From: an uncultured delta proteobacterium
GTDB taxonomy: Bacteria > Myxococcota > Myxococcia > Myxococcales > Myxococcaceae
Length of the DNA: 64,000 nucleotides
Reading direction: 5' to 3'
NCBI GenBank assembly: GCA_963771175.1
Contig: CAVYSY010000026.1
Coordinates: 320,001-384,000 of the forward strand
How positions within the stretch are numbered: the stretch's first letter is position 1; every line of letters starts with the position of its first letter. The position numbers and the translations under genes are program-made. The notes under the pieces were generated by a model. The model saw only the letters and a list, made by a program, of their open reading frames with translations, searched no databases and was not told the origin of the DNA. Below, piece by piece: positions 41,854-61,301 of this stretch.

Positions 41854-42516
41854 TCACTCCTGCCCGCCCTCCTTCTGGAGGTCGAGCAGGTAGAGCTTCA
41901 GGTAGGCCTGTGCGCGGCTGACGCGCTTGTACGAGTTGACCACGGTGATGTTGAGTCTCCGGGCGCATTCCTCGTGGTCCTCTACGTCCTGGTGGTGGTA
42001 CAGGTCCCACGCACCAGCTTCCTTGGGATGCTCACGCTGCAGGCGCTCGAAGGCGCGCCAGTAGAGTTCCTGGGCCTCGGTGCGCTCCTCGTCCCGCCGC
42101 GACTTGTCCATCGCGCGGTGCGCATCGACGGGCGACTCCTCCGGAGCCTCATCGGGGTTGGCCACGGCTGGCGCGAGGTCCTCGCGCTGCCGCCGGTAGA
42201 AGTCGATGGCCACGTGCTTGACGATGCGCAGGAAGAACGTCTTGGGAGACGCACTGCGCCCGGGCATCTGCTCGGAGACACCGCGGAACTGGTCGAGGCC
42301 GCGGTCGAGGAACTTGCCGATCGCGTCCTGGTAGAGCTCGTCCGCGTCCGCTGGAGAGCCGCGGCCATAGCTGGCCTGGATTTTGGAAATGACGTAGCGG
42401 GCCGGACGGGCCCAGCGCTCGCAGAGCGCGCCAAGCGGGGCTCCGACCGCCTCACCCGCGGCGCGGCGTTGGAGCACCTCTGCGAACAGTTCGTCATCCG
42501 TGAGCTCGTCGAACAC
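41854..42516 (-). CDS. ECF RNA polymerase sigma factor
   Basis: DADELYQDAIGKFL, FFLRIVKHVAIDFYRR, HEECARRLNITVVNSYKRVSRA. Confidence 0.85.
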   Translation of the reverse strand: MFDELTDDELFAEVLQRRAAGEAVGAPLGALCERWARPARYVISKIQASYGRGSPADADELYQDAIGKFLDRGLDQFRGVSEQMPGRSASPKTFFLRIVKHVAIDFYRRQREDLAPAVANPDEAPEESPVDAHRAMDKSRRDEERTEAQELYWRAFERLQREHPKEAGAWDLYHHQDVEDHEECARRLNITVVNSYKRVSRAQAYLKLYLLDLQKEGGQE

Positions 42517-42682: not shown

Positions 42683-42711
42683 AGGACGGAACCCGGGGGG
42701 GATTCCTGACG
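42683..42711 (-). promoter_or_regulatory. Putative autoregulatory ECF promoter of the sigma/anti-sigma operon
   Basis: Reverse strand CGTCAG-GAATCCCCCCCGGGTTC-CGTCCT (17-nt spacer). Confidence 0.7.
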
Positions 42712-42792: not shown

Positions 42793-42822
42793 CGTCAGGA
42801 GGGGCGGCTGCGCCCCGTCCCT
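42793..42822 (+). promoter_or_regulatory. Putative ECF promoter of the metallophosphoesterase
   Basis: CGTCAG-GAGGGGCGGCTGCGCCC-CGTCCCT (17-nt spacer). Confidence 0.7.
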
Positions 42823-42854: not shown

Positions 42855-43559
42855 ATGTCCCGCACCATCGTCATCGGAGACCTCCACGGGTGTTACGACG
42901 AAGCCCTGGAGCTTCTCGACCGCGTGGGCGCCACCTCGAGTGATCGGATCATCTTCACGGGTGACCTCGTCGACCGAGGCCCCAAGCGCCGCGAGTGCGT
43001 CGAGCTGGCCATGCAGCACGAGTCCATCCTCGGCAACCACGAGGAGAAGCACCTGCAGCAGCGCCGCCGCAAGGACGCCGACCTCCTGCCGGATCATCTG
43101 GAGACCCGGCAGGTCCTCGGCCCCGAGCACCTCGAGTACTTCGCCACCCTGCCCCACTTCATCCGCCTGCCCGAGCACAACGCCGTCGTCGTCCACGCCG
43201 GAGTGCTGCCCGGAAAGGCCATCGAGGAGCAGGACACCTATCACCTGCTCCATGCCCAGTGCGTGAGGCCCCCGGAGCGCAAGAGCTTCTGGCCCTCCAA
43301 GGCGCCCACCGACTACCGCTTCTGGACGCACCACTGGAAGGGCCCCGAGCGCGTCATCTTCGGGCACACCGTGTTCGACCGGCCGCTCGTCACCGAGCAC
43401 GCGGTGGGCATCGACACCGGGTGCGTCTACGGCCGCTCGCTCACGGCGGTGGTGCTCCCCACGTGGGAGCTCGTCTCGGTGCCCGCGCGCCAGACGTACC
43501 GGGGCGGCAAGGACGTGGCCCTGCTCCCGGTCCACGGCGATGTGAACGTGTTCTCGTGA
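42855..43559 (+). CDS. Calcineurin-like metallophosphoesterase (PrpE/ApaH/Pnkp-phosphatase type)
   Basis: GDLHG, GDLVDRG, GNHE, VHAG, FGH, IDTG motifs. Confidence 0.9.
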   Translation: MSRTIVIGDLHGCYDEALELLDRVGATSSDRIIFTGDLVDRGPKRRECVELAMQHESILGNHEEKHLQQRRRKDADLLPDHLETRQVLGPEHLEYFATLPHFIRLPEHNAVVVHAGVLPGKAIEEQDTYHLLHAQCVRPPERKSFWPSKAPTDYRFWTHHWKGPERVIFGHTVFDRPLVTEHAVGIDTGCVYGRSLTAVVLPTWELVSVPARQTYRGGKDVALLPVHGDVNVFS

Positions 43560-46627: not shown

Positions 46628-46756
46628 ACCTGCCCGTCTCCCCGAACACTCTCGGGGCCGGGCAACCTGGGCATCGCTAGGAAGCTAGGAAGCTCGCCTG
46701 GACCGGCACCCCGCCCTGAGGTTGGGATTGCCCGCCTTGCAGTGGACATCTCCCGC

Positions 46757-47185: not shown

Positions 47186-47198
47186 CGTGGACCTCCCG

Positions 47199-47618
<420 letters not shown>

Positions 47619-47734
47619 GAGGGTCCGCGCTCCTTCGTGAGGGGGAGAAAGCAAGACCACCGTACGCGGCCACACGAGGGCGTTGGCCGGCATGCCCTCA
47701 TGCTTCCGTCATGGTTTCGTCATCTCCGCCGACC

Positions 47735-47763
47735 TGTCAGGAATGAGGGGCCGCCACGTCCCT
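47735..47763 (+). promoter_or_regulatory. Putative ECF promoter of the vWA operon
   Basis: TGTCAG-GAATGAGGGGCCGCCA-CGTCCCT (16-nt spacer). Confidence 0.7.
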
Positions 47764-47798
47764 TCGCGCAGAACGACTCGCGCCCAGCGGAGGGGCAC

Positions 47799-49567
47799 AT
47801 GACCACCCAGAACCAGACCACCCCCACGCTCCCCGAGGCCCAGCGCGGCCCGGCGGAGAAGCTCCTGGACCTCGTCCTCGGGGGCTCCGCGCACCTGTGG
47901 CACAACCGCCCGGGCCTGGACGTGAACGGCGTCTGGCACCCGGCCCAGGCGGCGAAGCCGGACCTCGTCCGCCGCGGCACCCCGGTGAAGCCCGGCCTCT
48001 TCGTGCCCGCCGCGGTGAAGCTCTACGGCCAGCTGCTGGACATCTACCGGCTCAACACGGACCTGATGGCGCACTTCGCCTCCTACGCGCTCACGCAGAC
48101 GGACTGGCGCGATCTCAAGGTGGCCACCTGCGCGCTGATGCTCGTGCAGAGCCACTCCGGGCAGCCCGTGCGCGAGGACGACGGCTCCATCGCGTTCCAC
48201 GACGACGACTTCCGCGCCATCGGCGAGGCCATGCTCCTCCACTACGAGCGCAAGTCCACGCGCATGCTCACGCCCAAGGCGGTGCTGCGGGTGGCCGAGC
48301 TGCTCGAGACGCCGGAGATCGCCCGCCTCAACCGCGAGGCCGGCTTCGGTGACCCCGCGTCCCGCAAGCCGCCGCTCGGCCGCTGGAAGCGCGTGGCGAC
48401 GAAGTGGCTGCGGCTGCGCGAGCAGAACCTGCCCATGCTCCAGGGCCTGGTGAAGGCCGGCTACAAGGAGACGCTCAAGAGGATCGCCCGCAAGGCCGGT
48501 TACAAGCCGGTGTCGCAGGCCTTCTTCGAGGTGCTCGGCTGGAAGCAGAAGCAGGCGGCCGCGGGCCACCGCTCGGTGGGCCTGGAGGGACTCAAGCTCG
48601 TCAAGCGGGAGCGCTTCGACGGGCTCTCGGAGGCGGAGATCTGCGAGTGGATCGAGCTGGAGCGCCTCTCCTACAAGGAGGTGGTGGGCCGGCTGCCCAA
48701 GGACCTGGGCCTGACGCCGGCCATCATGGCGGCGCTCCTGCCCTCGCTGTCGGACCGCGACTTGCGCATGCTGACGCCCACGCTCGAGGAGCTGGGGCTG
48801 ATGTCCGACCCCGCGATCCGCGCGCGCTGGGAGAAGGCGGTCGCAGACGGCGACCGACCAGCGCGCGCTCCACATCGCGAAGAACGTCCGCAGCCAGGAG
48901 CTGAAGGCGAAGCTGGAGGAGGCGAGCGACAACGCGGCGAAGGCGGCGGTGGCGGAGGCGACGGCCGAGACGGACGTGAGGGTGATGTTCCTCATCGACA
49001 AGTCGGGCTCCATGGAGGGCGCCATCGAGCAGTCCAAGGAGGCGCTGTCGCGCATCCTCGCCGGCTTCCCGCTGGAGAAGCTGCACATCGCGTCGTTCGA
49101 CACGATGGGCACGGTGCTGAAGCCCAAGGCGGCGAGCCGGGCGGCGGTGCAGCACATGCTCGCAGGGGATTCAGGCGTCGGGCGGCACGACGCACGCGGC
49201 CGGTGTGCATGCGCTGCACCGGGCGGGAGTGCGGGTGCCGGAGGAGGCGAAGCTCGTCGTCATCGTCGTGGGTGACGAGGCCGGCGAGGCGGGTGACCAG
49301 TTCGCCCGCGCCTTCCGCGAGTGCGGCTACAGCGTGGCCGCCATGGCGCTGCTGGTGAGCGTGGCCAGCACGCGGGGCAGCACCGTGCGCACGTGCGCGG
49401 CGCAGCTCCGGGTGCCGTTCAGCGAGGTGCAGGTGGACCAGTTCGAGGACCCGTACCAGGTCCCCCGCGTGCTCAAGGCGCTGATGGACGCGCCGACGGC
49501 GACCGGGGCCAGCCAGTCCGGCTGGGTCGAGCGGGTGATGCGCACGCCGCTGCTGAAGGTGGCGTGA
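47799..49567 (+). CDS. Large helical N-domain + C-terminal vWA domain protein (frameshifted)
   Basis: MIDAS motif FLIDKSGSMEG, then GGT and VVGDE elements; frameshifts near 48845 and 49165. Confidence 0.8.
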
Positions 49568-49574
49568 GAGAGGA

Positions 49575-50575
49575 GTGGGTGTCGTGGACTACCGGAAGTT
49601 CCTCGGGAAGGTGGAGTCGGCGGTGCTGCCCTACTTCGGCGGCGCCTCCGTCGACGCGGCCTCGCGGCGCCTCCGCGTGTCCACGCCGCCCGCTCCGGGC
49701 TGGTGGCGCTTCGACGTGCAGGGGCGCACCGCCACCGCGCGGGAGCCGGCCGAGCCGGAAGGGCTCGACGGGCTCCCGCTCATTCGTGGACATCTCTGGG
49801 GCTCGCGGTTGGTGCGCGAGGGCGCGGTGGCCGAGCCGGTGAAGCTCCTCCCCGAGGAGGAGCCGCCGCGCTTCTCGCCGCTGCGCGCCCGGCGCTGGCA
49901 TGACGGGACGCTCGTCTTCGAGGGGCTCGACTTCGAGGGCGAGGCCGAGGGCACCGCACGCCTCCTGTTGGAGGAAGGCCGGGCGCTCGCGGAGGTGAAG
50001 GCCGTGCCGGCGTCGCTGCGGGCGGCCTTCGGTTACGCGGTGCTGGAGGGTGCCTCGCGCGCGCTCGGCATCCGCTTCTCCCCGGTCGAGGTGCGTGGAC
50101 AGGTGCTGTCCGTGTCCGAGGGAGGCCGTCCCGCGGCCGAGGCCCGGCTGCGGGCCCTGGCCGCCGAGCGCGAGGCCCACGTGCGGGCAGTGGAGGCACG
50201 GCCACGGGCGCGTGGAGGTCCAGCGGCAGCGGGCGGTGGAGGAGGTCCGGCTGCAGGCGGAACTGGCGCGACTGCGGAGCCAGCCGCGTCACCTGCAGCA
50301 GCAGGCGCAGGGGGCCGTGCGGGTGGAGCGGGCGTTGGAGGCGGCGGGGGCGCGGCTGCTCGACACGCGGCGGCTGGGGAGCGAGCGGCTCGAGGTGACG
50401 TTCGGCTTCATGGGCGAGCGCTTCATCAGCATCGTCGAGGCGAGACACGCTGCAGGTGGTGGACGCGGGCATCTGCCTCGCGGGAGCGGACCGGGAGGTG
50501 ACGCTGGAGAGCCTGCCGTCGGTCATCCGCGAGGCCATCGAGGACGACGTGCTGGTCATCACCCGGCACGCGTGA
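49575..50575 (+). CDS. Hypothetical protein with coiled coil and C-terminal E2-like DAGICL motif (frameshifted)
   Basis: Joined frames end ...LEVTFGFMGERFISIV...LQVVDAGICLAGADREVTLESLPSVIREAIEDDVLVITRHA*. Confidence 0.6.
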
Positions 50576-50585
50576 GGGCCTTCCC

Positions 50586-51048
50586 ATGGACAAGCGCGAG
50601 GTCTGCCTGCTCATCGGCCGGGACGGGACGGTGCTGTGGAGCGATGCCTCGGACAGTCCCGTGCTGGCTGCCGGACTCGCGCGCACGCTGGGAGGCCATC
50701 TGGCGGCTGCGCGACGAGCTGGAGGAGATTGCTCACAGCCACCCGGTGGGACCGCTGGGCTTCAGCGCCGAGGACGAGACGACGATGGCGGCGCTCACCG
50801 AGGCGCTCGGACGGCCAGTGCGCTTCTCGGTGGTGGCGCCCGACGGCATGGTGGTGCGCGAGGACGGTCGAGACTTCATCGTCACCGAAGAGCCCGCCTG
50901 GGCCGGACACATGCGGGCCGACTCCGGAATGAGCTCCCTCGACCATCCGGCGGTAACCGCACCTCCTCTCCGCCCTCCAGAAGGTGACACTCGTCGGTTC
51001 GACGGAGACTTCTTCGAGGCGCATGAGCCGGTAGGATGCGGCGCGTGA
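50586..51048 (+). CDS. JAB/MPN metallo-isopeptidase (frameshifted, end uncertain)
   Basis: N-terminal REVCLLI (catalytic Glu) and AHSHPVGPLGFSAED (HxH-x7-S-x2-D JAMM motif). Confidence 0.8.
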
Positions 51049-51308
51049 GCGCGAACGAGCACGACGATGAGGGACGGACGGATCGCTGGCAGAGCCTCGT
51101 GACAGGGGCCTTCCTGCTCGAGGAGTCGCTGAAGGCAACCCCTCCCCCGAGTGACACACGGCCCCCCAGAGCGCTCGCGGTGAGCTACCTCGACAGCGTG
51201 CTGGAGGTGTTCCCCTCCAGCGTGGACCCGGTCGAGGACTTCGAGGGCTACGCCATCCGGCGGATGGCGCTCGCCCTGCGCCGGGCCCTGGAGGAGAGCG
51301 GACGCTGA
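51036..51308 (+). CDS. Small hypothetical protein
   Basis: GC3-rich ORF of 90 aa following the JAB gene. Confidence 0.5.
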   Translation: MRRVSANEHDDEGRTDRWQSLVTGAFLLEESLKATPPPSDTRPPRALAVSYLDSVLEVFPSSVDPVEDFEGYAIRRMALALRRALEESGR

Positions 51309-51324
51309 GCGCTCCGGGCCGGGC

Positions 51325-51985
51325 TCACACCGGACGGAGCTCGGAACGGTAGCCGCCCTGCTCGACGGGAGGCTGGGTCCCGAGCTTCTGCTCGACGGCC
51401 TTCACGCCGAAGGCGCTGGGGTCGAGCTGGTCGCGGCCGGAGAAGACGCCGCGGGCGCGGCCCAGCAGCCACCCGAGGCCCTTCACCGCATCCCGGAGAA
51501 TCCGGATGGGCGCCGCGCGCGACATGAGCGGCGGGCTGAGCTGGTCGAGCTCCTCGCCCTTCAGGGTCATCTCCTTCACCCCCACGCCTTGCGAGTACAC
51601 CATCTCCGCCGCCCAGCCAGCCGGTATAGGAGGCGAAGGCGAACGCGCCCAGTCCCAGGAGGGTGGAGAGCAGAGAGGGACGGTGGCTCGCCCGCCATGT
51701 GGCGACCCCGAAGGCCCCCAGCACGATGACGACGTTGCCGAGCCCGTGCAGGAACATCATGTCCTTGGAGTGCTTGTCGGTCTTCACCTCCTGGGAAGCG
51801 GCCATCCCGGCCAGACCCGCGAGCAGCCCGCCCGCCGCGACGCTCCACCACAGCGTCCGGCCCGCCCGGTCCAACCTCCGGTCCTGGCTGAACGTCGCCG
51901 CCAGGTCGACGATGACCGTGGACGGCAACAGCGCCAGTGGAGCGTGAATCAACATCGGGTGCAGCTCGTGTACGCGCGTTTCCAT
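51325..51985 (-). CDS. DUF2231-type membrane protein (frameshifted)
   Basis: LHPMLIHAPLALL, AGLAG, FLHGLGN, YTGWLGG.MVY..GVGV. Confidence 0.75.
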
Positions 51986-52177
51986 GGGCTTCCTCCTCGT
52001 CCAGGGAACCTTGGGGCACGCGGCCCCACTGGCAACCCGCCCGCCTGTCCGTCGGGAGTCACGGTTCCCGACGGAGGAGCATCCGCGGGGGAGGGCAGGC
52101 GAGGCGGCAGCCCCCTTGTCGGGGAGGACGGGCGTGGGCAGACCCCGGGCACGGGCGCGCTGCCCCAGGAGGGCTCG

Positions 52178-52394
52178 GTGAAATCCGCGGGGCTGATGCT
52201 GGTGCTGGCGGGGCTCGTCCTCGCCGTCGTGGGGCTGCTGGTGTACTCGGGCGCGCTGTCCTGGTTCGGCCGCCTGCCGGGCGACCTGCGCTGGGAAGGC
52301 GAGCACACCCGGCGTCTACGTCCCGCTGACCTCGATGCTGCTGCTCTCCGTGCTGCTCAGCTTGCTGGCCTTCGTGGTGCGCCGGCTCCTCTAG
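52178..52394 (+). CDS. DUF2905-type small membrane protein (frameshifted)
   Basis: WFGRLPGDLRWE...YVPLTSMLLLSVLL. Confidence 0.75.
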
Positions 52395-52516
52395 CTCCAG
52401 GGCCTCGCGATGCGCGCGTGCATTCGTCGTGTGGAGTTCACTCGGCGCCGACAACACTTGGGTGCTGGCGCACAGTGACTAGGCTTGCACTCGCTCACCT
52501 TCAGGAGGAGCACTGG

Positions 52517-52999
52517 ATGACGAACGAGTCACGCCCGCCGCAAGAGGCCGAACAGCAGAACACGGCCGAGCTGATGGCCCCGCCCACCACCCCTTCCATG
52601 GGCCAGCGCCCCGCCTCCGTGACGCCCACGGGCCGGGCCGGTGCCCGGCGGAAGATGGGCAAGACGGGGCCGGCGGCCAAGAAGGGCCGCACCGTCGCGA
52701 AGCGCAAGCCGGAGAAGAAGCGCCCCGCCAAGCAGGCGAGGGGGGCGGCGGCACGCAAGACCACGCGTGCTGGCGCGACCAGCAGCTTCCGCAAGAAGGA
52801 GGGCTGGAAGTCCGAGGCCACGGTGGGCGGCCGCAAGCCCTCCGCCTCGCAGAAGAAGGGCCCCACCAAGAAGGCAGGTCCAGCCCGGAAGACCGTGGCC
52901 CGGCGCGCCACCGCCGCCAGGACCGCCACCGGGCGAGGCACGGCCGCGAAGCGCACCACCGCGAAGCGCACCACCGCGAAGCGCACCACCCGCCGCTAG
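52517..52999 (+). CDS. Lys/Arg/Ala/Thr-rich histone-H1-like basic protein
   Basis: AGGAGG RBS; low-complexity basic sequence; AKRTT tandem repeat x3. Confidence 0.6.
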   Translation: MTNESRPPQEAEQQNTAELMAPPTTPSMGQRPASVTPTGRAGARRKMGKTGPAAKKGRTVAKRKPEKKRPAKQARGAAARKTTRAGATSSFRKKEGWKSEATVGGRKPSASQKKGPTKKAGPARKTVARRATAARTATGRGTAAKRTTAKRTTAKRTTRR

Positions 53000-53015
53000 G
53001 CGCCCTCCCCGCTCC

Positions 53016-54761
53016 TCACGGCCTGACACCAGGAGGGGCCTGGAGGCGTCGCCGCTCGAGCACCCGCCGGAATCCGCTCTCCTTCTCGGAGGAGACGCAC
53101 ACCGCGTGGCCGTCGAGCACGCCACACACCACCGACTCCGGGTGGCGCAGGAAGGGCGCCAGGTACGCGGGGTGGACCACGTAGACGCTCTCGGGTTGGA
53201 ACTCGCCGCGCCCAGCCTCCTGCTGGAGCGCGGTGCAGTAGGCCTGGGCCCGGGCAGGGTCCACTCGCGCGAGGTATGCGCTGTTGAAGGTCATCCCCAG
53301 GGAGGCCGCCTTGTACGCGAACATGGGAGTGAAGGGCGCGCCGGCTCCGGGGTGCGGACAGCCTCGGCCGTTCCCGTCGTGGAGCTGCGGCGGGAACAGC
53401 ACGAGGTGGCGGTAGTCGTCCTTCATCCGGTCCCACTCGGGCGAGCGCAGGGCGTTCCAGGACTGGCCCTGGAAACGCTCCTGGGCCACGGCCGGGCCGA
53501 GGTCGAACATCTGCACGCCCACGGCGAGAGCGAGCAGCCCCGTGCCCACCCACGGTCGGCGGCGCCACGCACCCAGCACGAGCGCGAGCGCCCCCGTCAG
53601 CAAGGCGTAGTGCAGCGGCCAGATGAAGCGCCCCGAGGAGCGGAACGGCTCCACGAGCCGCATCACCGGCCCGTAGAGCCCCTGCAGGTCCAGCACCGGC
53701 CGACCCGCGAAGGTGACGCGCGAGGAGAGCGCGAACACGCCCAGCAGGAAGCAACCCACCGCCAGGGGCAGCGCGCGCTTCCACTGGGGCGTCCACTCCG
53801 AGTGCCGCGCCAGCCGCGACACCAGCGCGGAGCCCACGCCCAGCCCGAGCAGGAGCAGCACGCCCAGGCCCAGGTAGCCGAAACCCTCGTACTGGCCGCG
53901 CGCCGTGTTCAGGGTGGGCAGCAGCCGGGACCAGCCCATGGGATTGACGAGCGTGAGCAGGTCCGACGAGACATCACCGAAGCCCTCGATGCCGGCCGGG
54001 GTGCTCGTGCCCACGTAGCCGAGCAGCCAGAAGAGGCCCAGCAGGAGCGCGACGAGCCCCCCCAGGGAGAGTCCCACCCCACGCCAGGAGAGCGTCCCGT
54101 CCACCAGACGCAGCCGCAGCAGCGCCGCCGCCGCCAGCACCAGCCCCATGGCGGACAGGTACGGGTGGATGGTGGCGCTCAACGCCATCAGGAGGAACAT
54201 CACCGCCACGGCGCGCCGCGCCCCCGCCCGGTCCGGCCAGTCGCGCAGGTTCACCCAGAAGAGCCCGAGCAGGAGCCAGTGCGCGCAGAGGCTGTCATGC
54301 CCCAGGCGCCACATCAGCACGGGCGCGAGCGCGAAGAGCGCGCCTCCGAGAAAGTGCGCGGCCAGGTTCGGGGTGAAGAGCGCCGTCAGCCGGGCACCCA
54401 GATAGCCCTGGAGGGCGAAGCACAGCGCGAGCCAGGGGCCGATGTACTGGAACGGGAACGGCAGCAGCCCCGCGAAGGGCCGCAGCAGCAGGGCCACCAG
54501 GGGGATGGAGTCCATGTAGCCCAGGGTCGTCCCGAGCGGGTGCGCCAGACCGGGCACGGCCCCGAGGGGAAGCCCCAGCAGCGGCTCGTTGCGGAAGAAG
54601 AGCCAGCCCGTGAGGTGCTGGGACCAGTCGCCCACCATCAGCCAGTCCACCTGGCCCGGGTTCAGCGTCCGGTCTCCATGACTCAGGATGAACCAGAGCA
54701 CGCCGAAGGCCGCCGCCAGCAACGCGGGCAGGTGCTCCCGCCCCCGCTGCCACACGTTCAT
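53016..54761 (-). CDS. Polytopic membrane protein (GT-C-like, DUF6311 type)
   Basis: GDWSQHLTGWLFFR, GYMDSIP, FQYIGPW, QYEGFGYLGLG, FRSSGRFIWP. Confidence 0.65.
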   Translation of the reverse strand: MNVWQRGREHLPALLAAAFGVLWFILSHGDRTLNPGQVDWLMVGDWSQHLTGWLFFRNEPLLGLPLGAVPGLAHPLGTTLGYMDSIPLVALLLRPFAGLLPFPFQYIGPWLALCFALQGYLGARLTALFTPNLAAHFLGGALFALAPVLMWRLGHDSLCAHWLLLGLFWVNLRDWPDRAGARRAVAVMFLLMALSATIHPYLSAMGLVLAAAALLRLRLVDGTLSWRGVGLSLGGLVALLLGLFWLLGYVGTSTPAGIEGFGDVSSDLLTLVNPMGWSRLLPTLNTARGQYEGFGYLGLGVLLLLGLGVGSALVSRLARHSEWTPQWKRALPLAVGCFLLGVFALSSRVTFAGRPVLDLQGLYGPVMRLVEPFRSSGRFIWPLHYALLTGALALVLGAWRRRPWVGTGLLALAVGVQMFDLGPAVAQERFQGQSWNALRSPEWDRMKDDYRHLVLFPPQLHDGNGRGCPHPGAGAPFTPMFAYKAASLGMTFNSAYLARVDPARAQAYCTALQQEAGRGEFQPESVYVVHPAYLAPFLRHPESVVCGVLDGHAVCVSSEKESGFRRVLERRRLQAPPGVRP

Positions 54762-54912
54762 CCCAGCTCCACCTGTGTTCCCCATCGGTCCCCCCCTTAG
54801 CGGAAAGGCGAGCCGAAGCGTACCGCCTTCCCGTGGGCCCGGCGGGCCATCGGCCGCGCCCCGGACTCCGAGGCGGTGGACGGGCCCCGGAGGTCTTGCC
54901 ATCGTCCGGGCC

Positions 54913-55858
54913 ATGCGAATTGCTCGTCTGCTGACCCTCTCCGCGCTGGCGTTCGCGGCCCCCGCCGCTCGCCGCCCCCCCCAAGGGAAAGACCACCATG
55001 ACGAAGCCCTCCGAGACAAAGCCCTCCGAGACGAAGCCGCCCGACCTCGAGGCCGAGACGCGCGCCTGGCACCAGAAGCGCATCGCGAGCCTCACGTCCG
55101 ATGATGGCTGGCTCACCCTGGTGGGGCTGCACTGGTTGAAGGAAGGCGCCAACGACTTCGGCTCCTCGGAGGAGAACGAGTGCGTCTTCCCCGCGGGGAC
55201 GCCGGCGCGCATCGGCACCCTCACCCTGAAGGGCGGCAAGGTGACGCTGGCCGTCGCGCCGGGAGTCACCCTCACCCGGGCCGGCCAGCCCTTCACCGGA
55301 GGCGAGCTGCGCGACGACTCCGACGGCACGCCGGATGTGCTCTCGCTGGGGACGCTGCGCTTCTTCGTCATCCGCCGGGCAGAGCGGATTGGCATCCGGG
55401 TGAAGGACTCGGAGGCCGAGGCGCGCAAGAAGTTCCACGGCATCCCCACCTACCCGGTGAGCGCGGCCTGGCGCGTCGAGGGCCGCTTCGAGCCGGCGGC
55501 CACGCCCCGGAAGCTGTCGGTGCCCACGATGCTCGGCACGGTGGAGGAGATGAACTCGCCGGGCACGGCGGTGTTCACGGTGAACGGCCAGGAGTACCGG
55601 CTGGACGTCACGCAGGAGCCCGGGGACCCGCAGCTCTTCATCATCTTCTCGGACCTGACCAACCGCACGGAGACGTACGGCGCGGGCCGCTTCCTGTACG
55701 CGGACCTGCCCCGGGACGGGAAGGTGGTGCTGGACTTCAACCAGGCCTACAACCCCCCGTGCGCCTTCTCGCCCTACGCGACGTGCCCGCTGCCTCCGCC
55801 GCAGAACCGTCTGAAGCTGCGCGTGGAGGCCGGCGAGAAGCGCTACGGCGACCACTGA
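54913..55858 (+). CDS. DUF1684 family protein (frameshift after signal peptide)
   Basis: GWLTLVGLHWL, ETYGAGRFL, LDFNQAYNPPCAFSPYATCPLPPPQN. Confidence 0.88.
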
Positions 55859-55860
55859 GT

Positions 55861-55890
55861 CGTCAGGAACACCGTCCGCCTCACGTCTCC
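55861..55890 (+). promoter_or_regulatory. Putative ECF promoter of the Ubl-E1 operon
   Basis: CGTCAG-GAACACCGTCCGCCTCA-CGTCTCC (17-nt spacer). Confidence 0.65.
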
Positions 55891-55955
55891 CAAGCGGAAA
55901 ACCCGGCCGGGCCGAGCCCTCGGTCCGGGCCGGAGTGGACGCGAGGAGGCGTGAC

Positions 55956-56201
55956 ATGGCGACGCTGAACATCACCTACAACGGGCTGTCCTCGGACCTG
56001 CCGCTGGAGCTGGACGGCCACGTGGCGGACGTGGACGTGCGGCGCATCGCGGTGGAGGTGGTGCGCTCGGGCGGGGCGCCGGGGCTGCACATCGCCAACC
56101 TGCGCGAGGACGCCTTCGCCCACTACGTGGTGGACCGGTTCCGCGGGCCCCGGGGCGAGGAGCGCATCTACCTGCGGCCCAAGGTGCCCTTCGGGGCGTG
56201 A
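55956..56201 (+). CDS. Putative ubiquitin-like (beta-grasp) protein, 81 aa
   Basis: GAGGAGG RBS; N-terminal beta hairpin (ATLNITYNGLSSDL), helix, C-terminal IYLRPKVPFG-A; immediately upstream of the ThiF gene. Confidence 0.65.
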   Translation: MATLNITYNGLSSDLPLELDGHVADVDVRRIAVEVVRSGGAPGLHIANLREDAFAHYVVDRFRGPRGEERIYLRPKVPFGA

Positions 56202-56214
56202 GGGAGGGCCCACC

Positions 56215-56793
56215 ATGCGCATCGTCTTCTGCGGAGTGGGGGCCATCGGCTCCACGGCGGCGGTGCTGTGCCGCAACCTGGAGGCGACGCTCGTCTTCAT
56301 CGACTTCGACCGGGTGGAGTCCAAGAACCTGCTGGCGCAGGCCTTCGTGAAGCCCTCGGTGGGGAAGAACAAGGCGGAGGCGCTGAAGCTCCAGTTGCTC
56401 AACCTGCACGGGGTGAAGGCCGAGGCCTTCGGCGTGCGGGTGACGCGGGACAACGTGGCGGCGCTGTGCGGGAGCGCGGACCTGCTCGTCGACTGCTTCG
56501 ACAACCAGGAGAGCCGGCTGCTGCTGAGCGGGTTCGCCCGGAGCGCGGGCAAGCCGCTGGTGCACGGGGCGCTGGCGGCGGACGGCACCTTCGGGCTGGT
56601 GCGCTGGGACGAGCGCTTCGTCCCGGACGCCGAGGACACCGTGGGCCAGGCCACCTGCGAGGGCGGCGCGCACCTGCCGCTCATCGGCCAGCTCGGCGCC
56701 ACGCTCGCACGGGTAGTGCAGGACTTCGTGAAGCACGGCACTCGCCGTGACGCGATGGTGAGCCTCGTGGCGGTGACGCCGACCGCGAGCTGA
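56215..56793 (+). CDS. ThiF/MoeB/E1-like adenylyltransferase
   Basis: CGVGAIGS, IDFDRVESKNLLAQ, GKNKAEA, VDCFDN; candidate Cys in ATCEG. Confidence 0.88.
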   Translation: MRIVFCGVGAIGSTAAVLCRNLEATLVFIDFDRVESKNLLAQAFVKPSVGKNKAEALKLQLLNLHGVKAEAFGVRVTRDNVAALCGSADLLVDCFDNQESRLLLSGFARSAGKPLVHGALAADGTFGLVRWDERFVPDAEDTVGQATCEGGAHLPLIGQLGATLARVVQDFVKHGTRRDAMVSLVAVTPTAS

Positions 56794-56828
56794 AGGAAGG
56801 GGGATATGCTCCAGGGCACGAGGTCCTC

Positions 56829-57422: not shown

Positions 57423-57430
57423 CCCGGGGC

Positions 57431-59730: not shown

Positions 59731-59759
59731 CGTCAGGATTCCGGGAACCCAGCGTCCAT
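59731..59759 (+). promoter_or_regulatory. Putative ECF promoter of the tRNA array
   Basis: CGTCAG-GATTCCGGGAACCCAG-CGTCCAT (16-nt spacer). Confidence 0.7.
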
Positions 59760-60044: not shown

Positions 60045-60131
60045 GGGGACGTAGAGCGTTACGCGAAGACGCACCGGCCTGTAGAGCCGGAGCCTTCAAT
60101 GGCCCGCTGGGTTCAACTCCCAGCGTCCCCA
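60045..60131 (+). tRNA. tRNA-Tyr(GTA)
   Basis: Acceptor GGGGACG/CGTCCCC; anticodon arm CCGGC-CTGTAGA-GCCGG; long variable arm; T-arm CTGGG-TTCAACT-CCCAG. Confidence 0.8.
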
Positions 60132-60150
60132 CTCCGCAGTGGAAGTACGG

Positions 60151-60168
60151 GTTCTCTGACAACTGAAT
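60151..60168 (+). promoter_or_regulatory. boxA-like antitermination element
   Basis: GTTCTCTGACAACTGAAT resembles rRNA-operon boxA (GYTCTTTRACAA). Confidence 0.45.
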
Positions 60169-60211
60169 CGCAGTGGTGAAGCGCCGCCTGCCCTCAAGCG
60201 AGGCGGCACAC

Positions 60212-60282
60212 GCCTCCGTAGCTCACGGGTAGAGCATCCGCCTCTTAAGCGGACGGTGAGGGTTCGAGTCCCTCCGGAGGTA
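60212..60282 (+). tRNA. tRNA-Lys(CTT)
   Basis: GCCTCCG/CGGAGGT; TCCGC-CTCTTAA-GCGGA; GAGGG-TTCGAGT-CCCTC. Confidence 0.88.
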
Positions 60283-60289
60283 CTCATAC

Positions 60290-60363
60290 GCGGATGTCGT
60301 CCAGCGGCAGGACACCGGCCTCCCAAGTCGGAAACACGGGTTCGAATCCCGTCACCCGCTCCA
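60290..60363 (+). tRNA. tRNA-Gly(CCC)
   Basis: GCGGATG/CACCCGC-T-CCA; CCGGC-CTCCCAA-GTCGG. Confidence 0.88.
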
Positions 60364-60368
60364 CCTAT

Positions 60369-60439
60369 TCCGGGATCGTCCAGCGGCAGGACGGCGGGCT
60401 CTGACCCCGCAGACGCAGGTTCGAATCCTGCTCCCGGAG
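60369..60439 (+). tRNA. tRNA-Gln(CTG)
   Basis: TCCGGGA/TCCCGGA; GCGGG-CTCTGAC-CCCGC. Confidence 0.88.
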
Positions 60440-60462
60440 CTGTCGCAGCACAGGCAACACAT

Positions 60463-60534
60463 TCCACGGTAGCTCAATGGCAGAGCAGGCGGCTGTTAAC
60501 CGCAAGATTGGGGGTTCGAGTCCCTCCCGTGGAG
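60463..60534 (+). tRNA. tRNA-Asn(GTT)
   Basis: TCCACGG/CCGTGGA; GCGG-CTGTTAA-CCGC. Confidence 0.9.
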
Positions 60535-60539
60535 CAACT

Positions 60540-60615
60540 CGGGGTGTAGCTCAGTCTGGACGAGAGCGCGTGCTTGGGGTGCACGAGGTCGTCGGTTCGA
60601 ATCCGGCCACCCCGA
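60540..60615 (+). tRNA. tRNA-Pro(GGG)
   Basis: CGGGGTG/CACCCCG; CGTGC-TTGGGGT-GCACG. Confidence 0.9.
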
Positions 60616-60635
60616 CTCCGTTTCAACCGTTTCAT

Positions 60636-60709
60636 CTGGGTGTGGCTCAACTTGGTAGAGCGCGCGGTTCGGATCCGCGAGGTTGCAGGTTCAAATCCTG
60701 TCACCCAGA
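60636..60709 (+). tRNA. tRNA-Pro(CGG)
   Basis: CTGGGTG/CACCCAG; CGCGG-TTCGGAT-CCGCG. Confidence 0.9.
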
Positions 60710-60715
60710 CATTTC

Positions 60716-60789
60716 GCCTCCGTAGCTCAGGGGAACAGAGCGCACGGCTCCGGACCGTGAGGCCGCAGGTTCGAATCCTGCCGGGGGCA
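60716..60789 (+). tRNA. tRNA-Arg(CCG)
   Basis: GCCTCCG/CGGGGGC; CACGG-CTCCGGA-CCGTG. Confidence 0.9.
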
Positions 60790-60798
60790 CAGCTTCGA

Positions 60799-60870
60799 TG
60801 CGGAGTGGGACCGGACGTCCCACCGGGTCTCATACGCCTGGGTCGCAGGGTTCGACTCCCTGCTCCGCAA
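60799..60870 (+). tRNA. tRNA with CAT anticodon (Met, fMet-like or Ile2), atypical D-arm
   Basis: TGCGGAG/CTCCGCA; CGGGT-CTCATAC-GCCTG; CAGGG-TTCGACT-CCCTG. Confidence 0.7.
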
Positions 60871-60882
60871 CTTCTTCATCAT

Positions 60883-60955
60883 GCCGTCCTGGCGTAGGTG
60901 GTCCGCGCGCCCGTCTGAAGAGCGGGAGGACCGGGTTCGATTCCTGGGGACGGCA
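60883..60955 (+). tRNA. tRNA-Phe(GAA)
   Basis: GCCGTCC/GGACGGC; CCCGT-CTGAAGA-GCGGG. Confidence 0.82.
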
Positions 60956-60963
60956 CTCGTTTT

Positions 60964-61037
60964 GCTCCTGTAGCTCAGCTGGTAGCAGCACCGGTTTCGT
61001 AAACCGGGGGTCGTCGGTTCGAACCCGACCGGGAGCA
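60964..61037 (+). tRNA. tRNA-Thr(CGT)
   Basis: GCTCCTG/CGGGAGC; CCGGT-TTCGTAA-ACCGG. Confidence 0.88.
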
Positions 61038-61053
61038 CTGTTTCACGCAGCAT

Positions 61054-61125
61054 GTTGGCTGAAGGCAAAGGGTGAGCCACCGGTCGTGAATCCGGTTCCA
61101 GAGGGTTCGAGTCCCTCCAGCCGAC
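61054..61125 (+). tRNA. tRNA-His(GTG), irregular anticodon loop
   Basis: 8-bp acceptor with G-1:C73 (GTTGGCTG/CAGCCGAC); CCGG-TCGTGAAT-CCGG; GAGGG-TTCGAGT-CCCTC. Confidence 0.65.
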
Positions 61126-61132
61126 CTTCTTC

Positions 61133-61205
61133 GCACGCCGAGCCAGCTGGAGACGGCGTTGGTCCCACACACCAATTTCGCCGGGTTCGATCCCCGGGGC
61201 GTGCA
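61133..61205 (+). tRNA. tRNA-Val(CAC), non-canonical G8 and C33
   Basis: GCACGCC/GGCGTGC; TTGGT-CCCACAC-ACCAA; CCGGG-TTCGATC-CCCGG. Confidence 0.72.
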
Positions 61206-61226
61206 CTGCAACAGACTCCCCAACGC

Positions 61227-61301
61227 GTCCGCGTGGCCCAATCGGGAGAGGCGGCTGGCTCAAACCCAGCTCACGTGCGAGTTCGACTCTCGCCGCGGAC
61301 A
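61227..61301 (+). tRNA. tRNA-Leu(CAA) with short variable loop
   Basis: GTCCGCG/CGCGGAC; GCTGG-CTCAAAC-CCAGC; 6-nt variable region; GCGAG-TTCGACT-CTCGC. Confidence 0.8.

Follow-up and report, generated by a model that had tools for sequence, protein, structure and literature searches.

The five-gene locus

The window, by which we mean the whole 64,000-nt stretch of DNA analysed here, contains five genes encoding a vWA protein, an OB/Cys protein (gene 2), a JAB peptidase, a small ubiquitin-like protein (Ubl) and an E1. All five lie where the preliminary description had placed them, in two halves separated by unrelated genes:

47799..49567, + strand: gene 1, vWA protein; broken as assembled
49575..50572, + strand: gene 2, OB/Cys protein; broken as assembled
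50586..51048, + strand: JAB/JAMM metallopeptidase; broken as assembled
51036..55858: spacer between the halves, with unrelated genes (a small ORF, a frame-broken membrane protein gene, a Lys/Arg-rich ORF, a DUF6311 membrane protein and DUF1684)
55956..56201, + strand: Ubl, 81 aa, ending RPKVPFG-A; intact as assembled
56215..56793, + strand: minimal E1/ThiF-type adenylyltransferase, 192 aa; intact as assembled

Comparison with other genomes indicates that the five genes form one functional unit, always kept together within a genome. The vWA gene lies immediately 5′ of gene 2 in 76 of the 80 loci that carry gene 2, and JAB lies at most 600 nt from gene 2 in 73 of them. The Ubl and E1 genes follow directly 3′ of JAB at 18 loci, in two of which the Ubl was undetected; a neighbourhood survey of the kind proposed in the preliminary description thus recovers 16 contiguous five-gene operons, along with 25 split loci in which Ubl/E1 lie 2.9–7.9 kb downstream of JAB on the same strand. 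Where 8 kb of flank or more was available, 25 loci showed no Ubl/E1 in it; when five genomes of this type were tested, each had a single Ubl elsewhere. In one sample of the phylum, gene 2 and Ubl occur in the identical 66 of 251 genomes and in no others, even where megabases separate the two. The system is single-copy and present, with synteny kept, in all sampled genomes of whole genera (18/18 and 21/21), while outside Myxococcota it is scattered (two Virgisporangium genomes, one Actinomycetota MAG and one Planctomycetes MAG). Because the halves are contiguous in other lineages, co-occur perfectly at the genome level and have a promoter motif in common, they are best read as one system, as had been proposed. 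As a myxobacterial gene set it is apparently undescribed.

Frame breaks in the assembled copy

The vWA, gene 2 and JAB genes had previously been read as intact, but in the window copy they are affected by five +1 frame moves, each due to an extra base on the + strand, leaving only Ubl and E1 unbroken:

48842 (C) and 49161 (C), + strand: extra bases in the vWA gene
~50211 (G) and 50443 (A), + strand: extra bases in gene 2
50664 (C), + strand: extra base in JAB

A sixth extra base at ~50936 probably lengthens the JAB tail; JAB is 116–122 aa long in relatives. If the breaks were real, the three genes would be pseudogenes in this strain and the system would be dead. The given sequence does carry the five bases, and, while all four independent runs lack them where covered, none of these runs is clearly the source of the assembly. 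We nevertheless regard inactivation as very unlikely. All five are single-base insertions, with no deletion or stop among them, and third-position GC remains near 1.0 on either side of each break. Each is missing from 8/8 same-genus relatives, and strain X20, which is ~98% identical, has none of the five. The genome is just 81.66% complete, versus 96–100% for 15 of 17 genus relatives, and about 17 more same-strand frame changes of the same kind occur elsewhere in the window, where they break a UvrD-like helicase (three times), an AAA_2 ATPase (twice), a histidine kinase and others, all of which are intact in the relative G017. Since insertions of the same kind break the helicase and other window genes, the five insertions are most likely assembly or sequencing errors rather than real inactivation.

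A common promoter-like motif and an adjacent sigma/anti-sigma pair

The preliminary description had reported the same promoter motif upstream of both halves. The motif, GTCAGGA-N13-17-CGTC, is real by count: it has five copies in the window versus 0.36 expected, and none of 100 shuffles reaches five. The copies and the features around them are as follows:

40637..41824, − strand: putative anti-sigma factor, 395 aa, downstream of the sigma gene (start codon picked by eye within the ORF)
41854..42516, − strand: ECF-type sigma factor, 220 aa (Sigma70_r2, E 1.7e-7, 31.4 bits versus a cut-off of 24)
42685..42710, − strand: two-part promoter-like motif upstream of the sigma gene, suggesting autoregulation
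42794..42819, + strand: two-part promoter-like motif upstream of the phosphoesterase gene
42855..43559, + strand: calcineurin-like metallophosphoesterase, 234 aa (Metallophos, E 3.3e-14)
47736..47760, + strand: two-part promoter-like motif 38 nt upstream of the vWA gene
55862..55887, + strand: two-part promoter-like motif 68 nt upstream of the Ubl gene
59732..59756, + strand: two-part promoter-like motif ~290 nt upstream of the tRNA array
60045..61301, + strand: array of 13 tRNAs, on the same strand as the system

Comparison across loci indicates that this one motif is common to the two halves and the sigma gene, and in several lineages to a tRNA array as well. It is found within 250 nt 5′ of Ubl in 24 of the 25 split loci and, as a minus-strand copy, 5′ of the sigma gene in 17 of the 25 loci that have this gene. 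For the vWA gene, a copy within 1200 nt on the 5′ side was found in only 34 of 68 loci. The motif-then-tRNA-array arrangement recurs in two other loci (L046 and L091). tRNA arrays also lie near Ubl/E1 in other lineages, with tRNA genes close by in only 7 of 20 sampled genomes. A homologue of the sigma factor (62–93% identity) adjoins the system in only 26 of 81 loci, and anti-sigma homologues adjoin the sigma gene in many loci. The anti-sigma factor itself has two Cys-rich HC2-like motifs, with a zf-HC2 match (E 7.5e-4, 20 bits) under the cut-off of 22.2. In Myxococcus-type loci the metallophosphoesterase gene lies immediately 5′ of the vWA gene. The sigma/anti-sigma pair and the motif on the tRNA array, like the frame breaks, had been overlooked in the preliminary description.

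Ubl, JAB and E1

The 81-aa protein has homologues in 185 representative clusters. The RPKVPFG ending is conserved and followed by 0–8 variable residues. As had been suspected, the model of the protein is a beta-grasp of beta-beta-alpha-beta-beta topology (pLDDT 91). This fold, with its conserved Gly near the end and the variable tail behind it, fits the earlier suggestion that JAB trims the Ubl. The peptidase has the appropriate signature: an intact orthologue matches Prok-JAB at 30.3 bits versus a cut-off of 25, and the Glu and H-x-H-P-x-G-x3-F-S-x2-D are invariant in 22/22 sequences. The E...H-S-H-x7-S-x2-D residues previously reported for the window copy are indeed encoded, but as assembled no single ORF joins the Glu to HSH.

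The E1 reported beside the Ubl matches Pfam ThiF (E 6.7e-21, 75 bits versus a cut-off of 28.1) and, as had been noted, lacks CxxC motifs. As judged from sequence, the adenylation site is complete: the Gly loop, D-x-D-R-V..K-N..Q, K, D..D-N...R and one Cys are invariant in 22/22 sequences, the last being Cys148 in T-C-x-x-G-x-H-L-P.

Like ThiS/MoaD + ThiF/MoeB pairs, the locus combines a small beta-grasp protein ending in a conserved Gly with an adjoining ThiF-family adenylyltransferase bearing a loop Cys. The Ubl, adenylated by E1, could become a thiocarboxylate and supply sulfur to a cofactor, to a metabolite or to a tRNA base, with JAB only maturing the carrier and the Cys of gene 2 relaying a persulfide. 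JAB-trimmed sulfur carriers are known (CysO/Mec and QbsE/QbsD), as is the dual-use TtuB of Thermus. Among named families, the E1 comes closest to ThiF and MoeB, both sulfur-carrier adenylyltransferases (1.9e-19 and below, every match falling under its cut-off), and its invariant Cys lies in what we take to be the Cys-bearing loop of MoeB and ThiF. The best structural neighbours of the Ubl include MoaD, and tRNA arrays are close by in several lineages. We nevertheless consider a sulfur-carrier pathway quite improbable. Unlike the cases of ThiS/MoaD, CysO, QbsE and TtuB, no sulfur-transfer or biosynthetic partner is nearby: scans of 11 neighbouring ORFs in the window and of 46 proteins that flank 12 contiguous loci turned up no rhodanese, cysteine desulfurase, PP-loop thiolase or thiamine/Moco/cysteine enzyme, the window result being in line with what had been reported from inspection. 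The E1 has neither a rhodanese domain nor a CxxC site, the Ubl has no Pfam ThiS/MoaD match and ends in a single Gly behind Pro-Phe rather than Gly-Gly, and it co-occurs perfectly with vWA and OB/Cys proteins, which are foreign to known sulfur relays.

Gene 2 has a new architecture and a predicted Ubl-binding site

The GICL-containing protein, present as described earlier, is a new architecture comprising a tandem OB fold, a coiled-coil linker and a C-terminal Cys domain (~317–332 aa when intact). Its model has a pLDDT of 88 and a pTM of 0.82, and the single Cys of D-x-G-x-C-L is invariant in 31/31 sequences. Searches of Pfam, NCBIfam and PADLOC gave no match, including to any E2 family; the HPN motif is absent, and no structural match to the Cys domain was found. 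In the predicted complex with Ubl the median score was 0.66 (runs 0.66, 0.00 and 0.78), versus 0.01 for the best of three controls. A score of 0.66 is reached by 116 of 157 solved complexes versus 2 of 215 mismatched pairs, a calibration that is rough here given the self-made alignments. The runs have at least 16% of contacts in common, with a partner pLDDT of at least 71. The interface covers gene 2 residues 275–311, including 284–288, and residues 78 and 79 of the Ubl tail lie against residue 285; the prediction thus places this tail next to the invariant Cys of gene 2. The E2-like assignment is supported as far as this predicted placement of the tail is concerned, but the searches give no support for homology to E2/UBC proteins. 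Since there is no E2 family match and the Cys domain has no structural relative, ‘E2-like’ denotes a role, not a family.

The vWA protein

Gene 1, when intact, encodes a protein of ~590 aa, with an unassigned N-terminal domain of ~380 aa and a C-terminal vWA/MIDAS domain; as assembled, no single ORF covers the whole of the latter. The vWA call made earlier is upheld by VWA_2 matches to the middle piece (E 2.4e-5) and to an intact orthologue (E 3.9e-11), and the MIDAS residues D-x-S-x-S, T and D are invariant in 19/19 orthologues. Ro60/Rsr (TROVE + vWA; RNA quality control) has the same two-part layout, and the N-terminal language-model neighbours, which serve as a lead only, are TROVE/DUF2828 clusters (score 0.77–0.83). 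An hhalign comparison with a Ro60 profile gave one collinear 425-column alignment (E 0.0063) with a probability of only 6%. Pfam TROVE did not match gene 1, a profile search of PDB sequences matched the vWA part only, and no Y-RNA-like family was detected near the system. A separate, true Ro60 is encoded on another contig of the same genome. In the eukaryotic ribosome-assembly factor Rea1/MDN1 (8ql1) a MIDAS domain docks onto UBL domains; this binding is non-covalent and, unlike the present system, has no conjugation enzymes.

Comparison with known conjugation and conflict systems

Similar to Bil (BilABCD; ISG15-like/ubiquitination defence), the present system encodes a separate Ubl, E1, Cys-bearing transfer protein and JAB together, and its Ubl precursor would need trimming. 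One solved bacterial E1-E2-Ubl complex, 8tyz_B, turns up as a weak structural neighbour of this Ubl. Bil is described as having a recognisable UBC-type E2 and a larger E1 (10.1101/2023.09.26.559546); here there are instead an OB, coiled-coil and Cys-domain transfer protein without an E2 family match, a 192-aa minimal E1 core, an obligatory vWA/MIDAS protein and its own sigma factor. CBASS type II Cap2 (E1-E2 fusion)/Cap3 (JAB) likewise pairs ThiF-type E1 chemistry with a reversing or priming JAB. The fused Cap2 is reported to conjugate the C-terminus of the cyclase itself, without a free Ubl (PMC10097602), unlike here, where a free 81-aa Ubl is present and there is neither a cyclase nor a fusion. 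Bub (bacterial ubiquitination-like) operons also join a peptidase of their own to a diverged bacterial E1/E2/Ubl pathway; they are reported to work through oxyester intermediates, with an E1 that has no catalytic Cys and is fused to a peptidase, and with a serine protease as deconjugase. By that account the present system differs, with an invariant Cys in both E1 and gene 2 and a separate JAMM metalloenzyme. A vWA protein accompanied by JAB, E1 and Ubl is also a feature of vWA-MoxR ‘FtsH ternary’ conflict systems of developmentally complex bacteria, whose further components are a MoxR AAA+ ATPase, a caspase-like effector, an E3 of the RING type and an E2-Ubl fusion with an EAD1 adaptor (Kaur, Burroughs, Iyer and Aravind 2020, PMC7159879). 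None of these further components was seen in our locus or its relatives.

These likenesses raise the possibility that the same chemistry serves antiviral defence of the Bil/CBASS kind, tagging phage or host proteins on infection, rather than housekeeping linked to stress or translation. Known defence systems are made up of the same parts, Ubl, E1 and JAB. The E1 is matched, over their E1 part only, by 23 PADLOC E1-E2 models (best 8.6e-14) and weakly by the anti-phage 6A-MBL cap2_3 model (2.6e-10), but PADLOC matches none of the other four proteins. Polyangiaceae loci have HNH and Uma2-type nuclease genes and tRNA arrays beside the operon, and occurrence outside Myxococcota is scattered. Defence systems are usually patchy and fast-evolving; here, a single copy is conserved throughout whole genera, gene 1 is 57–75% identical between loci, even across phyla, and there is a dedicated sigma/anti-sigma pair. 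A defence role is thus unlikely in our estimation.

A model for the system

Taken together, the genes have the appearance of a pathway that links a small ubiquitin-like protein to targets and is switched on from a stress-type promoter of its own. We think it reasonably probable that it is a conserved myxobacterial Ubl modification module, with a few Actinomycetota copies, controlled by an ECF sigma/anti-sigma pair in Myxococcaceae-type genomes; conjugation, thioesters and JAB cleavage are all steps that we infer. A stress signal would free the sigma factor and switch on both halves. JAB would then cut off the variable tail (here one Ala) behind the conserved Gly80 of Ubl, and the minimal E1 would adenylate Gly80, perhaps forming a thioester on Cys148. 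Ubl would be handed to the invariant Cys of the OB/Cys protein (Cys284 in the modelled orthologue), which, though not a recognisable E2, would act as one and perhaps also as an E3, joining Ubl to targets chosen by the OB domains and/or the vWA protein. The intact MIDAS of the latter suggests metal-dependent docking of an acidic partner, and JAB may also undo the modification. A link of this module to stress or translation would fit both its ECF sigma promoter and the tRNA arrays beside it.

A five-gene ubiquitin-like system in two halves

The system consists of five genes on the plus strand of the window, arranged in two groups:

47799-49567, plus strand: gene 1, an unassigned N-terminal part followed by a vWA domain (read in pieces)
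49575-50572, plus strand: gene 2, with a C-terminal domain carrying D-A-G-I-C-L (read in pieces)
50586-51048, plus strand: JAB peptidase (read in pieces)
55956-56201, plus strand: Ubl, an intact 81-aa ORF ending in RPKVPFGA, about 5 kb downstream of the first half
56215-56793, plus strand: E1, an intact 192-aa ThiF-family protein (Pfam ThiF, 6.7e-21)

A preliminary description of this DNA had proposed a split Ubl conjugation system here, and its five genes and their motifs are present at exactly the limits it assigned to them. It had also taken the genes to be intact, which is not so for three of the five: gene 1, gene 2 and JAB are frame-broken as assembled. In a locus from a genome of another family within the same taxonomic order (L023), the five genes run head to tail on one strand and encode a vWA protein of 591 aa, a gene 2 product of 317 aa, a JAB of 116 aa, a Ubl of 81 aa and an E1 of 192 aa.

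For a survey of gene neighbourhoods, we searched species-representative genomes with gene 2 and kept the best 80 of 137 relatives' loci. Among these best 80 of 137, the vWA gene ended within 600 nt upstream of gene 2 in 76 and JAB started within 600 nt downstream of it in 73. Ubl/E1 followed within 300 nt of JAB in 18 loci (the Ubl itself being undetected in two of the 18); in 25 it lay 2.9-7.9 kb away, downstream and on the same strand, and in another 25 that had at least 8 kb of downstream flank it was not seen; 12 of the 80 ended at a contig edge before it could appear. Five genomes from the 25 Ubl/E1-less loci with enough flank were tested, and each had a single Ubl gene at another site. 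In an even sample of 251 genomes of the phylum, 66 had gene 2 and 66 had the Ubl, and they were the same 66, in several of which megabases of one chromosome separate the two genes. The genes thus do co-occur across genomes, a point on which the preliminary description had let its proposal stand or fall. The five genes are one unit.

Loci with the titles Polyangiaceae, Labilithrix and Kofleriaceae carry the contiguous form, as do two Virgisporangium genomes and one Actinomycetota MAG; the split form occurs in loci with the titles Myxococcus, Corallococcus, Pyxidicoccus, Archangium and Cystobacter. The system is single-copy and syntenic and is present in every sampled member of whole genera (18/18 and 21/21); Myxococcus xanthus carries it (locus L090).

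In the two Virgisporangium loci (L108, 2932-6855; L112, 3122-7085), the vWA gene is immediately preceded, in the same orientation, by genes for a PCMT-like methyltransferase and an Hsp70-like protein of about 900 aa, and a radical-SAM gene with DUF2344 is found downstream; the operon may have gained these neighbours in that lineage only. Two loci titled Labilithrix (L094, 11810-12754; L105, 14105-15049) and an unclassified Proteobacteria MAG (L082, 3740-4684) have an FHA-GGDEF diguanylate cyclase gene after E1. In the spacer between the two halves of the window's system, a plus-strand ORF at about 52420-52999 encodes a Lys/Arg/Ala/Thr/Pro-rich product containing short repeats (…TTAKRTTAKRTTAKRTT…), which resembles histone-H1-like basic proteins.

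Frame breaks in the first half

Because the window has a G+C content of about 70%, the true coding frame stands out clearly in third-position GC, and the plus-strand coding frame shifts by +1 base five times between 47799 and about 50900. In a multiple alignment with eight relatives of the same genus (L015-L022), the window alone has single extra bases at 48842 (C), 49161 (C), about 50211 (G), 50443 (A) and 50664 (C). All five are absent from 8/8 relatives, which read each of the three broken genes in one frame, and there is no homopolymer run at any of the five insertion sites. The JAB motif that had been described as intact, E...HSH-x7-S-x2-D, is present in all its residues but not in one frame, since the extra base at 50664 separates the Glu from the HSH.

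We aligned contigs from four independent public sequencing runs, none of them clearly the source of the assembly, to 47700-51100. One base was omitted at each of the five sites in all four runs wherever these were covered, with two runs as exceptions: X2 leaves 48842 uncovered and shows no omission at about 50211, where its depth is 3, and X20 has a 25-base omission across about 50211 in place of the single-base one. A public-run strain of about 98% identity spans the whole of 47700-51100 in a single contig, with 61 other letters in 3401 bases. The base at 50936 is also omitted in X20 and in a further run, X1, and there is probably a sixth insertion at about this position, removal of which restores a short JAB tail as in the relatives.

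Events of this type occur throughout the window. Comparisons with two complete relatives had 120 window indels in common; of the 79 single-base events examined, 30 divide strongly coding flanks with different best frames, and 25 of these 30 are same-strand changes (counting 50664, for which the strand call differed). Three of the 25 lie at gene boundaries, and the remaining 22 comprise the five in this system and about 17 elsewhere. Elsewhere, three events hit the gene for a UvrD-like helicase and two that for an AAA_2-type ATPase; genes for a PAS histidine kinase and an epimerase and an AMP-binding/acyltransferase gene are broken as well, and all of these are intact in a relative's genome (G017). 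Examples of frame-shifting insertions in the window are those at 18829, 20812, 27347, 27818, 28483, 29799, 30589, 34023, 34778, 34913, 51608, 63680 and 63879, the one at about 51608 breaking a minus-strand membrane-protein gene.

Since the insertions are absent from the relatives and the runs, since the same type of event recurs across the window, and since the source genome has a completeness of only 81.66% (versus 96-100% in 15 of 17 genus relatives), we read them with high confidence as assembly errors, neither pseudogenisation nor recoding. It is correspondingly unlikely that the breaks are real and that the vWA gene, gene 2 and JAB are pseudogenes in the source strain. Programmed +1 frameshifting or recoding was considered and rejected: every site simply has one base too many, lacking in 8/8 relatives, the contexts have no common motif, and the relatives use a single frame. 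ORF-based reading of this genome, with its many genome-specific single-base insertions, needs care, and the case shows that a reading of raw sequence can silently repair frame errors.

A predicted beta-grasp Ubl and a minimal E1

An exhaustive search returned Ubl homologues in 185 representative clusters at E <= 0.001. In an alignment of 47 sequences, R74 is invariant, P75, P78 and G80 are at least 90% conserved, and 0-8 variable residues follow Gly80, giving a conserved C-terminal Gly that is either exposed or carries a removable tail. Whether the 81-aa protein has a beta-grasp fold had been named as a check on the original proposal; the AlphaFold model (pLDDT 91) has the beta-beta-alpha-beta-beta order and is a beta-grasp. 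Foldseek against the PDB gave nothing at E <= 0.001, the structural neighbours having modest scores and forming a consistent list, and Pfam and NCBIfam, in which ubiquitin, ThiS, MoaD and Urm1 were sought, gave no family at E <= 1.

The E1 matches Pfam ThiF (6.7e-21) at 75 bits against a cut-off of 28.1. Across 22 diverse sequences, a Gly-rich loop, D-x-D-R-V..K-N..Q, a Lys and D..D-N...R are invariant; the Gly loop and the Arg/Lys/Asp motifs presumably constitute the ATP-binding and adenylation site. One Cys, in T-C-x-x-G-x-H-L-P, is also invariant in 22/22 and is a candidate for a catalytic residue that would take the Ubl as a thioester, and the CxxC zinc motifs of MoeB/ThiF are absent from all 22, in agreement with the first account of this ThiF/E1 protein adjacent to the Ubl. 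The NCBIfam ThiF and MoeB models match it below their own cut-offs, and PADLOC E1-E2 models match over the E1 part only (best 8.6e-14).

That ThiF and MoeB are the nearest named families of the E1 and that the Ubl has a MoaD-like fold would fit a sulfur carrier in a thiocarboxylate pathway. However, no sulfur-transfer or thiamine/Moco/cysteine enzyme is found among 11 window neighbours, just as the preliminary description had noted the lack of thiamine, molybdopterin and cysteine-synthesis genes nearby, nor is one found in the flanks of 12 contiguous loci (46 proteins). The Ubl, moreover, ends in a single Gly after Pro-Phe, and its fate is tied to the vWA protein and the OB/Cys protein (gene 2). 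We consider it very unlikely that the Ubl is a sulfur carrier.

Gene 2 as a candidate transfer protein

Gene 2 has at least 512 relatives at E <= 0.001 (8000 candidates scored), and every source name among the 120 matches listed is 'hypothetical protein' or 'uncharacterized protein'. An alignment of 31 sequences has a conserved N-terminal region of about 195 residues, a variable linker and about 80 C-terminal residues with one invariant Cys in the context V-V-D-[AS]-G-[IV]-C-L. The structural model (pLDDT 88, pTM 0.82) comprises two beta-barrel units and long helices, then a helix followed by four strands, the Cys loop and a final helix.

No family was matched in Pfam or NCBIfam (both at E <= 1) or in PADLOC (E <= 0.1), and so no UQ_con, Prok-E2 or E2 model. 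The HPN motif is a hallmark of E2 enzymes, and no HPN precedes the invariant Cys in the alignment of 31. Foldseek with the whole model gave no PDB match at E <= 0.001 in a search that the OB domain dominated and that barely probed the Cys domain. As modelled, with a helix, a four-strand meander, the Cys loop and a helix, the C-terminal domain would be compatible with a UBC fold. In the ESM Atlas, the Cys domain had feature scores of at most 0.76 and a TM of 0.44-0.54 to unrelated small alpha+beta proteins, the Atlas model having a pLDDT of 0.43. A search for the Cys domain among shorter proteins gave 17 matches, all close relatives without a Pfam family; we read them as fragments of the same family, several being marked partial or lying on very short contigs.

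The predicted complex of full-length gene 2 with the Ubl reached a median score of 0.66 (runs 0.66, 0.00 and 0.78) against 0.01 for the best control. The 0.66 mark is reached by 116/157 solved complexes and 2/215 mismatched pairs, counts that are rough here because each protein was given its own custom alignment. At least 16% of contacts recur between runs, and the partner pLDDT is at least 71. In the best run, the interface is formed by the C-terminal domain of gene 2 (residues 275-311, including 284-288), and the Ubl tail touches residue 285, beside the invariant Cys284, through its residues 78 and 79. Gene 2 is predicted, in silico only, to hold the Ubl C-terminus at an active-site Cys; the predicted geometry, a matter of model confidence and no measurement, is that expected of a protein carrying the Ubl on Cys284. 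Of the 'E2-like' label given to gene 2 at the outset, the role is supported by the predicted complex, whereas membership of the E2 family is not: gene 2 appears to be E2-like in role only.

JAB and the vWA protein

The intact JAB orthologue in L023 matches Prok-JAB at 30.3 bits against a cut-off of 25, below which fall the intact orthologue in the same-genus locus L020 (21.3 bits) and the broken window piece (19.3 bits). The metal site, E plus H-x-H-P-x-G-x3-F-S-x2-D, is invariant in 22/22 sequences. The family also has a conserved C-terminal E-P-x-W...L-R..S-G (at about 50890-50935 in the window), somewhat like a ubiquitin-type LRLRGG end, and after it a tail of very variable length.

The vWA protein matches VWA_2 at 44 bits against 27, and the vWA domain of ITIH4 at an E of 7.4e-7; its MIDAS residues D401, S403, S405, T464 and D493 are invariant in 19/19. 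Its first 380 or so residues have no family match. The overall architecture is that of Ro60, with an N-terminal part in the position of TROVE followed by a MIDAS vWA domain, and the language-model neighbours of residues 1-380 in the ESM Atlas are TROVE and DUF2828 clusters (scores 0.77-0.83), which is a lead only. When aligned by hhalign with a bacterial Ro60 profile, built from relatives of the source genome's own Ro60 on another contig, gene 1 was collinear over 425 columns (pairwise E 0.0063, probability 6%), and BLASTP against that true Ro60 gave three weak collinear segments (best E 0.012). Pfam TROVE matched neither gene 1 nor the locus in carrier genomes, and the gene 1 profile found only vWA domains among PDB sequences. 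On these Pfam, BLASTP, PDB and hhalign results, TROVE membership of gene 1 is kept as a lead only; judged from sequence, the N-terminal domain could be related to Ro60/TROVE, a possibility to be taken seriously if with more doubt than belief.

Rfam detected no Y-RNA-like family near the system in the window (44000-59000) or in 7 relatives' loci; at E <= 1, nothing relevant was found in the window region (one chance miRNA-like match), and the relatives' loci gave tRNAs only. A separate true Ro60 orthologue (TROVE plus vWA_Ro60), whose relatives are named 60 kDa SS-A/Ro ribonucleoprotein, is encoded far from the locus on contig 51 of the source genome (L120, 838-2517, minus strand).

A two-part promoter-like motif, a putative sigma factor and tRNA arrays

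The upstream regions of gene 1 and the Ubl share only the 8-mer GTCAGGAA. Because this alone is not significant within the window (475/2000 shuffles reach a common substring of 8), the promoter case rests on a two-part motif and its conservation. In split loci, GTCAGGAA is the commonest 8-mer upstream of the Ubl (17/25), with CGTCC 13-14 nt later. The window has five copies of the pattern GTCAGGA-N13-17-CGTC versus 0.36 expected, and 0/100 shuffles reach five; in its strict form the pattern occurs 13 times in the 9.8-Mb genome, three of them in the window, against 6 for a reversed control pattern. The pattern scan placed the motif as follows, the tRNA array being added:

42685-42710, minus strand: motif upstream of the sigma gene (divergent pair with 42794)
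42794, plus strand: motif before a calcineurin-like phosphoesterase gene (divergent pair with 42685)
47736, plus strand: motif upstream of gene 1
55862, plus strand: motif upstream of the Ubl
59732-59756, plus strand: motif about 290 nt upstream of the tRNA array
60045-61301, plus strand: array of 13 tRNA genes (Tyr, Lys, Gly, Gln, Asn, Pro, Pro, Arg, Met, Phe, Thr, Val, Leu)

Within the 80-locus set (best 80 of 137), 24/25 split loci have the motif at most 250 nt upstream of the Ubl, 34/68 loci have it at most 1200 nt upstream of the vWA gene and 17/25 sigma-bearing loci have it upstream of the sigma gene; in L046 and L091 it lies between E1 and a tRNA array. The earlier observation that both halves carry the same promoter motif holds for the two-part motif, at 47736 and 55862. 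We take this motif to resemble ECF promoters; a sigma-70 consensus scan of 47500-57000 gave 0 sites. Ten further strict matches lie in the source genome on contigs 3, 4, 6, 25, 38, 46, 51, 54 and 56 and at C26:30350, and these sites could mark more members of the regulon.

The sigma gene encodes an ECF-type factor of 220 aa, of which region 2 alone was matched (Sigma70_r2, 31.4 bits versus 24), region 4 giving no family at E <= 0.001. The 395-aa protein encoded after it matches zf-HC2 weakly, at 20 bits under a cut-off of 22.2, so that the sigma gene has both its own promoter motif, at 42685-42710, and an adjacent candidate anti-sigma gene. A homologue of the sigma factor (62-93% identity) lies beside the system in 26/81 loci, pointing away from the vWA operon, and in Myxococcus-type loci the phosphoesterase gene immediately precedes the vWA gene. 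From the logic of autoregulation and from this linkage, we infer that the sigma factor reads the two-part motif. The phosphoesterase gene is followed, at 43628-44383 (plus strand), by a gene whose 251-aa product matches no family and has a highly acidic tail rich in Ser, Asp and Glu; this gene may belong to the same sigma-dependent transcription unit.

At least two tRNA genes were found in 6/35 scanned loci, and three Polyangiaceae loci have arrays on both sides of the operon. Downstream of Ubl/E1, 2-20 same-strand tRNA genes, in arrays that vary in content, occur within about 10 kb in 7/20 sampled genomes and none in 13/20; one of the seven apparently coincides with L046, and the counts overstate independence, as the genomes are interrelated. 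The presence of tRNA genes close to the system is recurrent, not universal. In two Polyangiaceae loci (L065, 2380-2907; L075, 6159-6686), an HNH endonuclease gene separates the upstream tRNA genes from the vWA gene, and in L065 a Uma2-type nuclease gene (10188-10757) follows the downstream array; these neighbours hint at a mobile or conflict-related setting of the arrays.

Possible functions and relation to known systems

Taken together, the results largely support the idea of a split Ubl conjugation system, which can be widened to a regulon under sigma control with the tRNA array as a member. To our knowledge, experimental work on bacterial Ubl conjugation is recent (CBASS Cap2/3, Bil and Bub), has always concerned phage defence and has involved recognisable E2 domains. 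Bil, CBASS Cap2/Cap3 and Bub are the closest known systems, together with the vWA-MoxR 'FtsH ternary' systems that embed a Ubl set (PMC7159879), and have the Ubl/E1/JAB logic in common with the cassette. It differs from all four in its transfer protein, minimal E1, regulation and core-like inheritance, and in its obligatory, MoxR-independent vWA partner. The cassette was not described in the literature searched, and a mention in comparative-genomics tables outside that literature (e.g. those of the E1-superfamily survey of 2009) is possible; by term search, PMC1779556, PMC8421152 and PMC4758250 do not mention myxobacteria, nor PMC1779556 vWA.

A defence role of the Bil/CBASS kind would be compatible with the predicted chemistry of the system. 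Against it, the system is single-copy and occurs in all sampled members of whole genera, and it is syntenic, slowly evolving and under its own sigma switch; we regard a defence role as unlikely. Another reading, bolder and likewise unlikely, is a bacterial Ubl pathway of RNA or translation quality control, in which a stress-responsive ECF sigma factor would co-induce a reserve tRNA array and a Ubl-tagging machine, with gene 1 as a diverged Ro60-like ring and gene 2 as a new class of E2/E3. The sigma factor would answer translational or oxidative stress; the vWA protein, as a highly diverged Ro60-like ring, would capture damaged RNA or ribonucleoprotein; and the OB-fold/Cys protein would read the nucleic-acid-bound targets and tag them, or the ring itself, with the Ubl.

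The cassette would add to bacterial Ubl conjugation a transfer protein of new architecture (tandem OB, coiled coil and a small Cys domain), a minimal E1 of 192 aa, an obligatory MIDAS-vWA partner and its own sigma/anti-sigma switch. Unlike that of a scattered defence island, its inheritance is core-like across whole myxobacterial genera. The common promoter ties the Ubl system to tRNA arrays, so that the poorly understood function of these arrays becomes testable, and since M. xanthus is genetically tractable, each step of the proposed mechanism is directly testable there.
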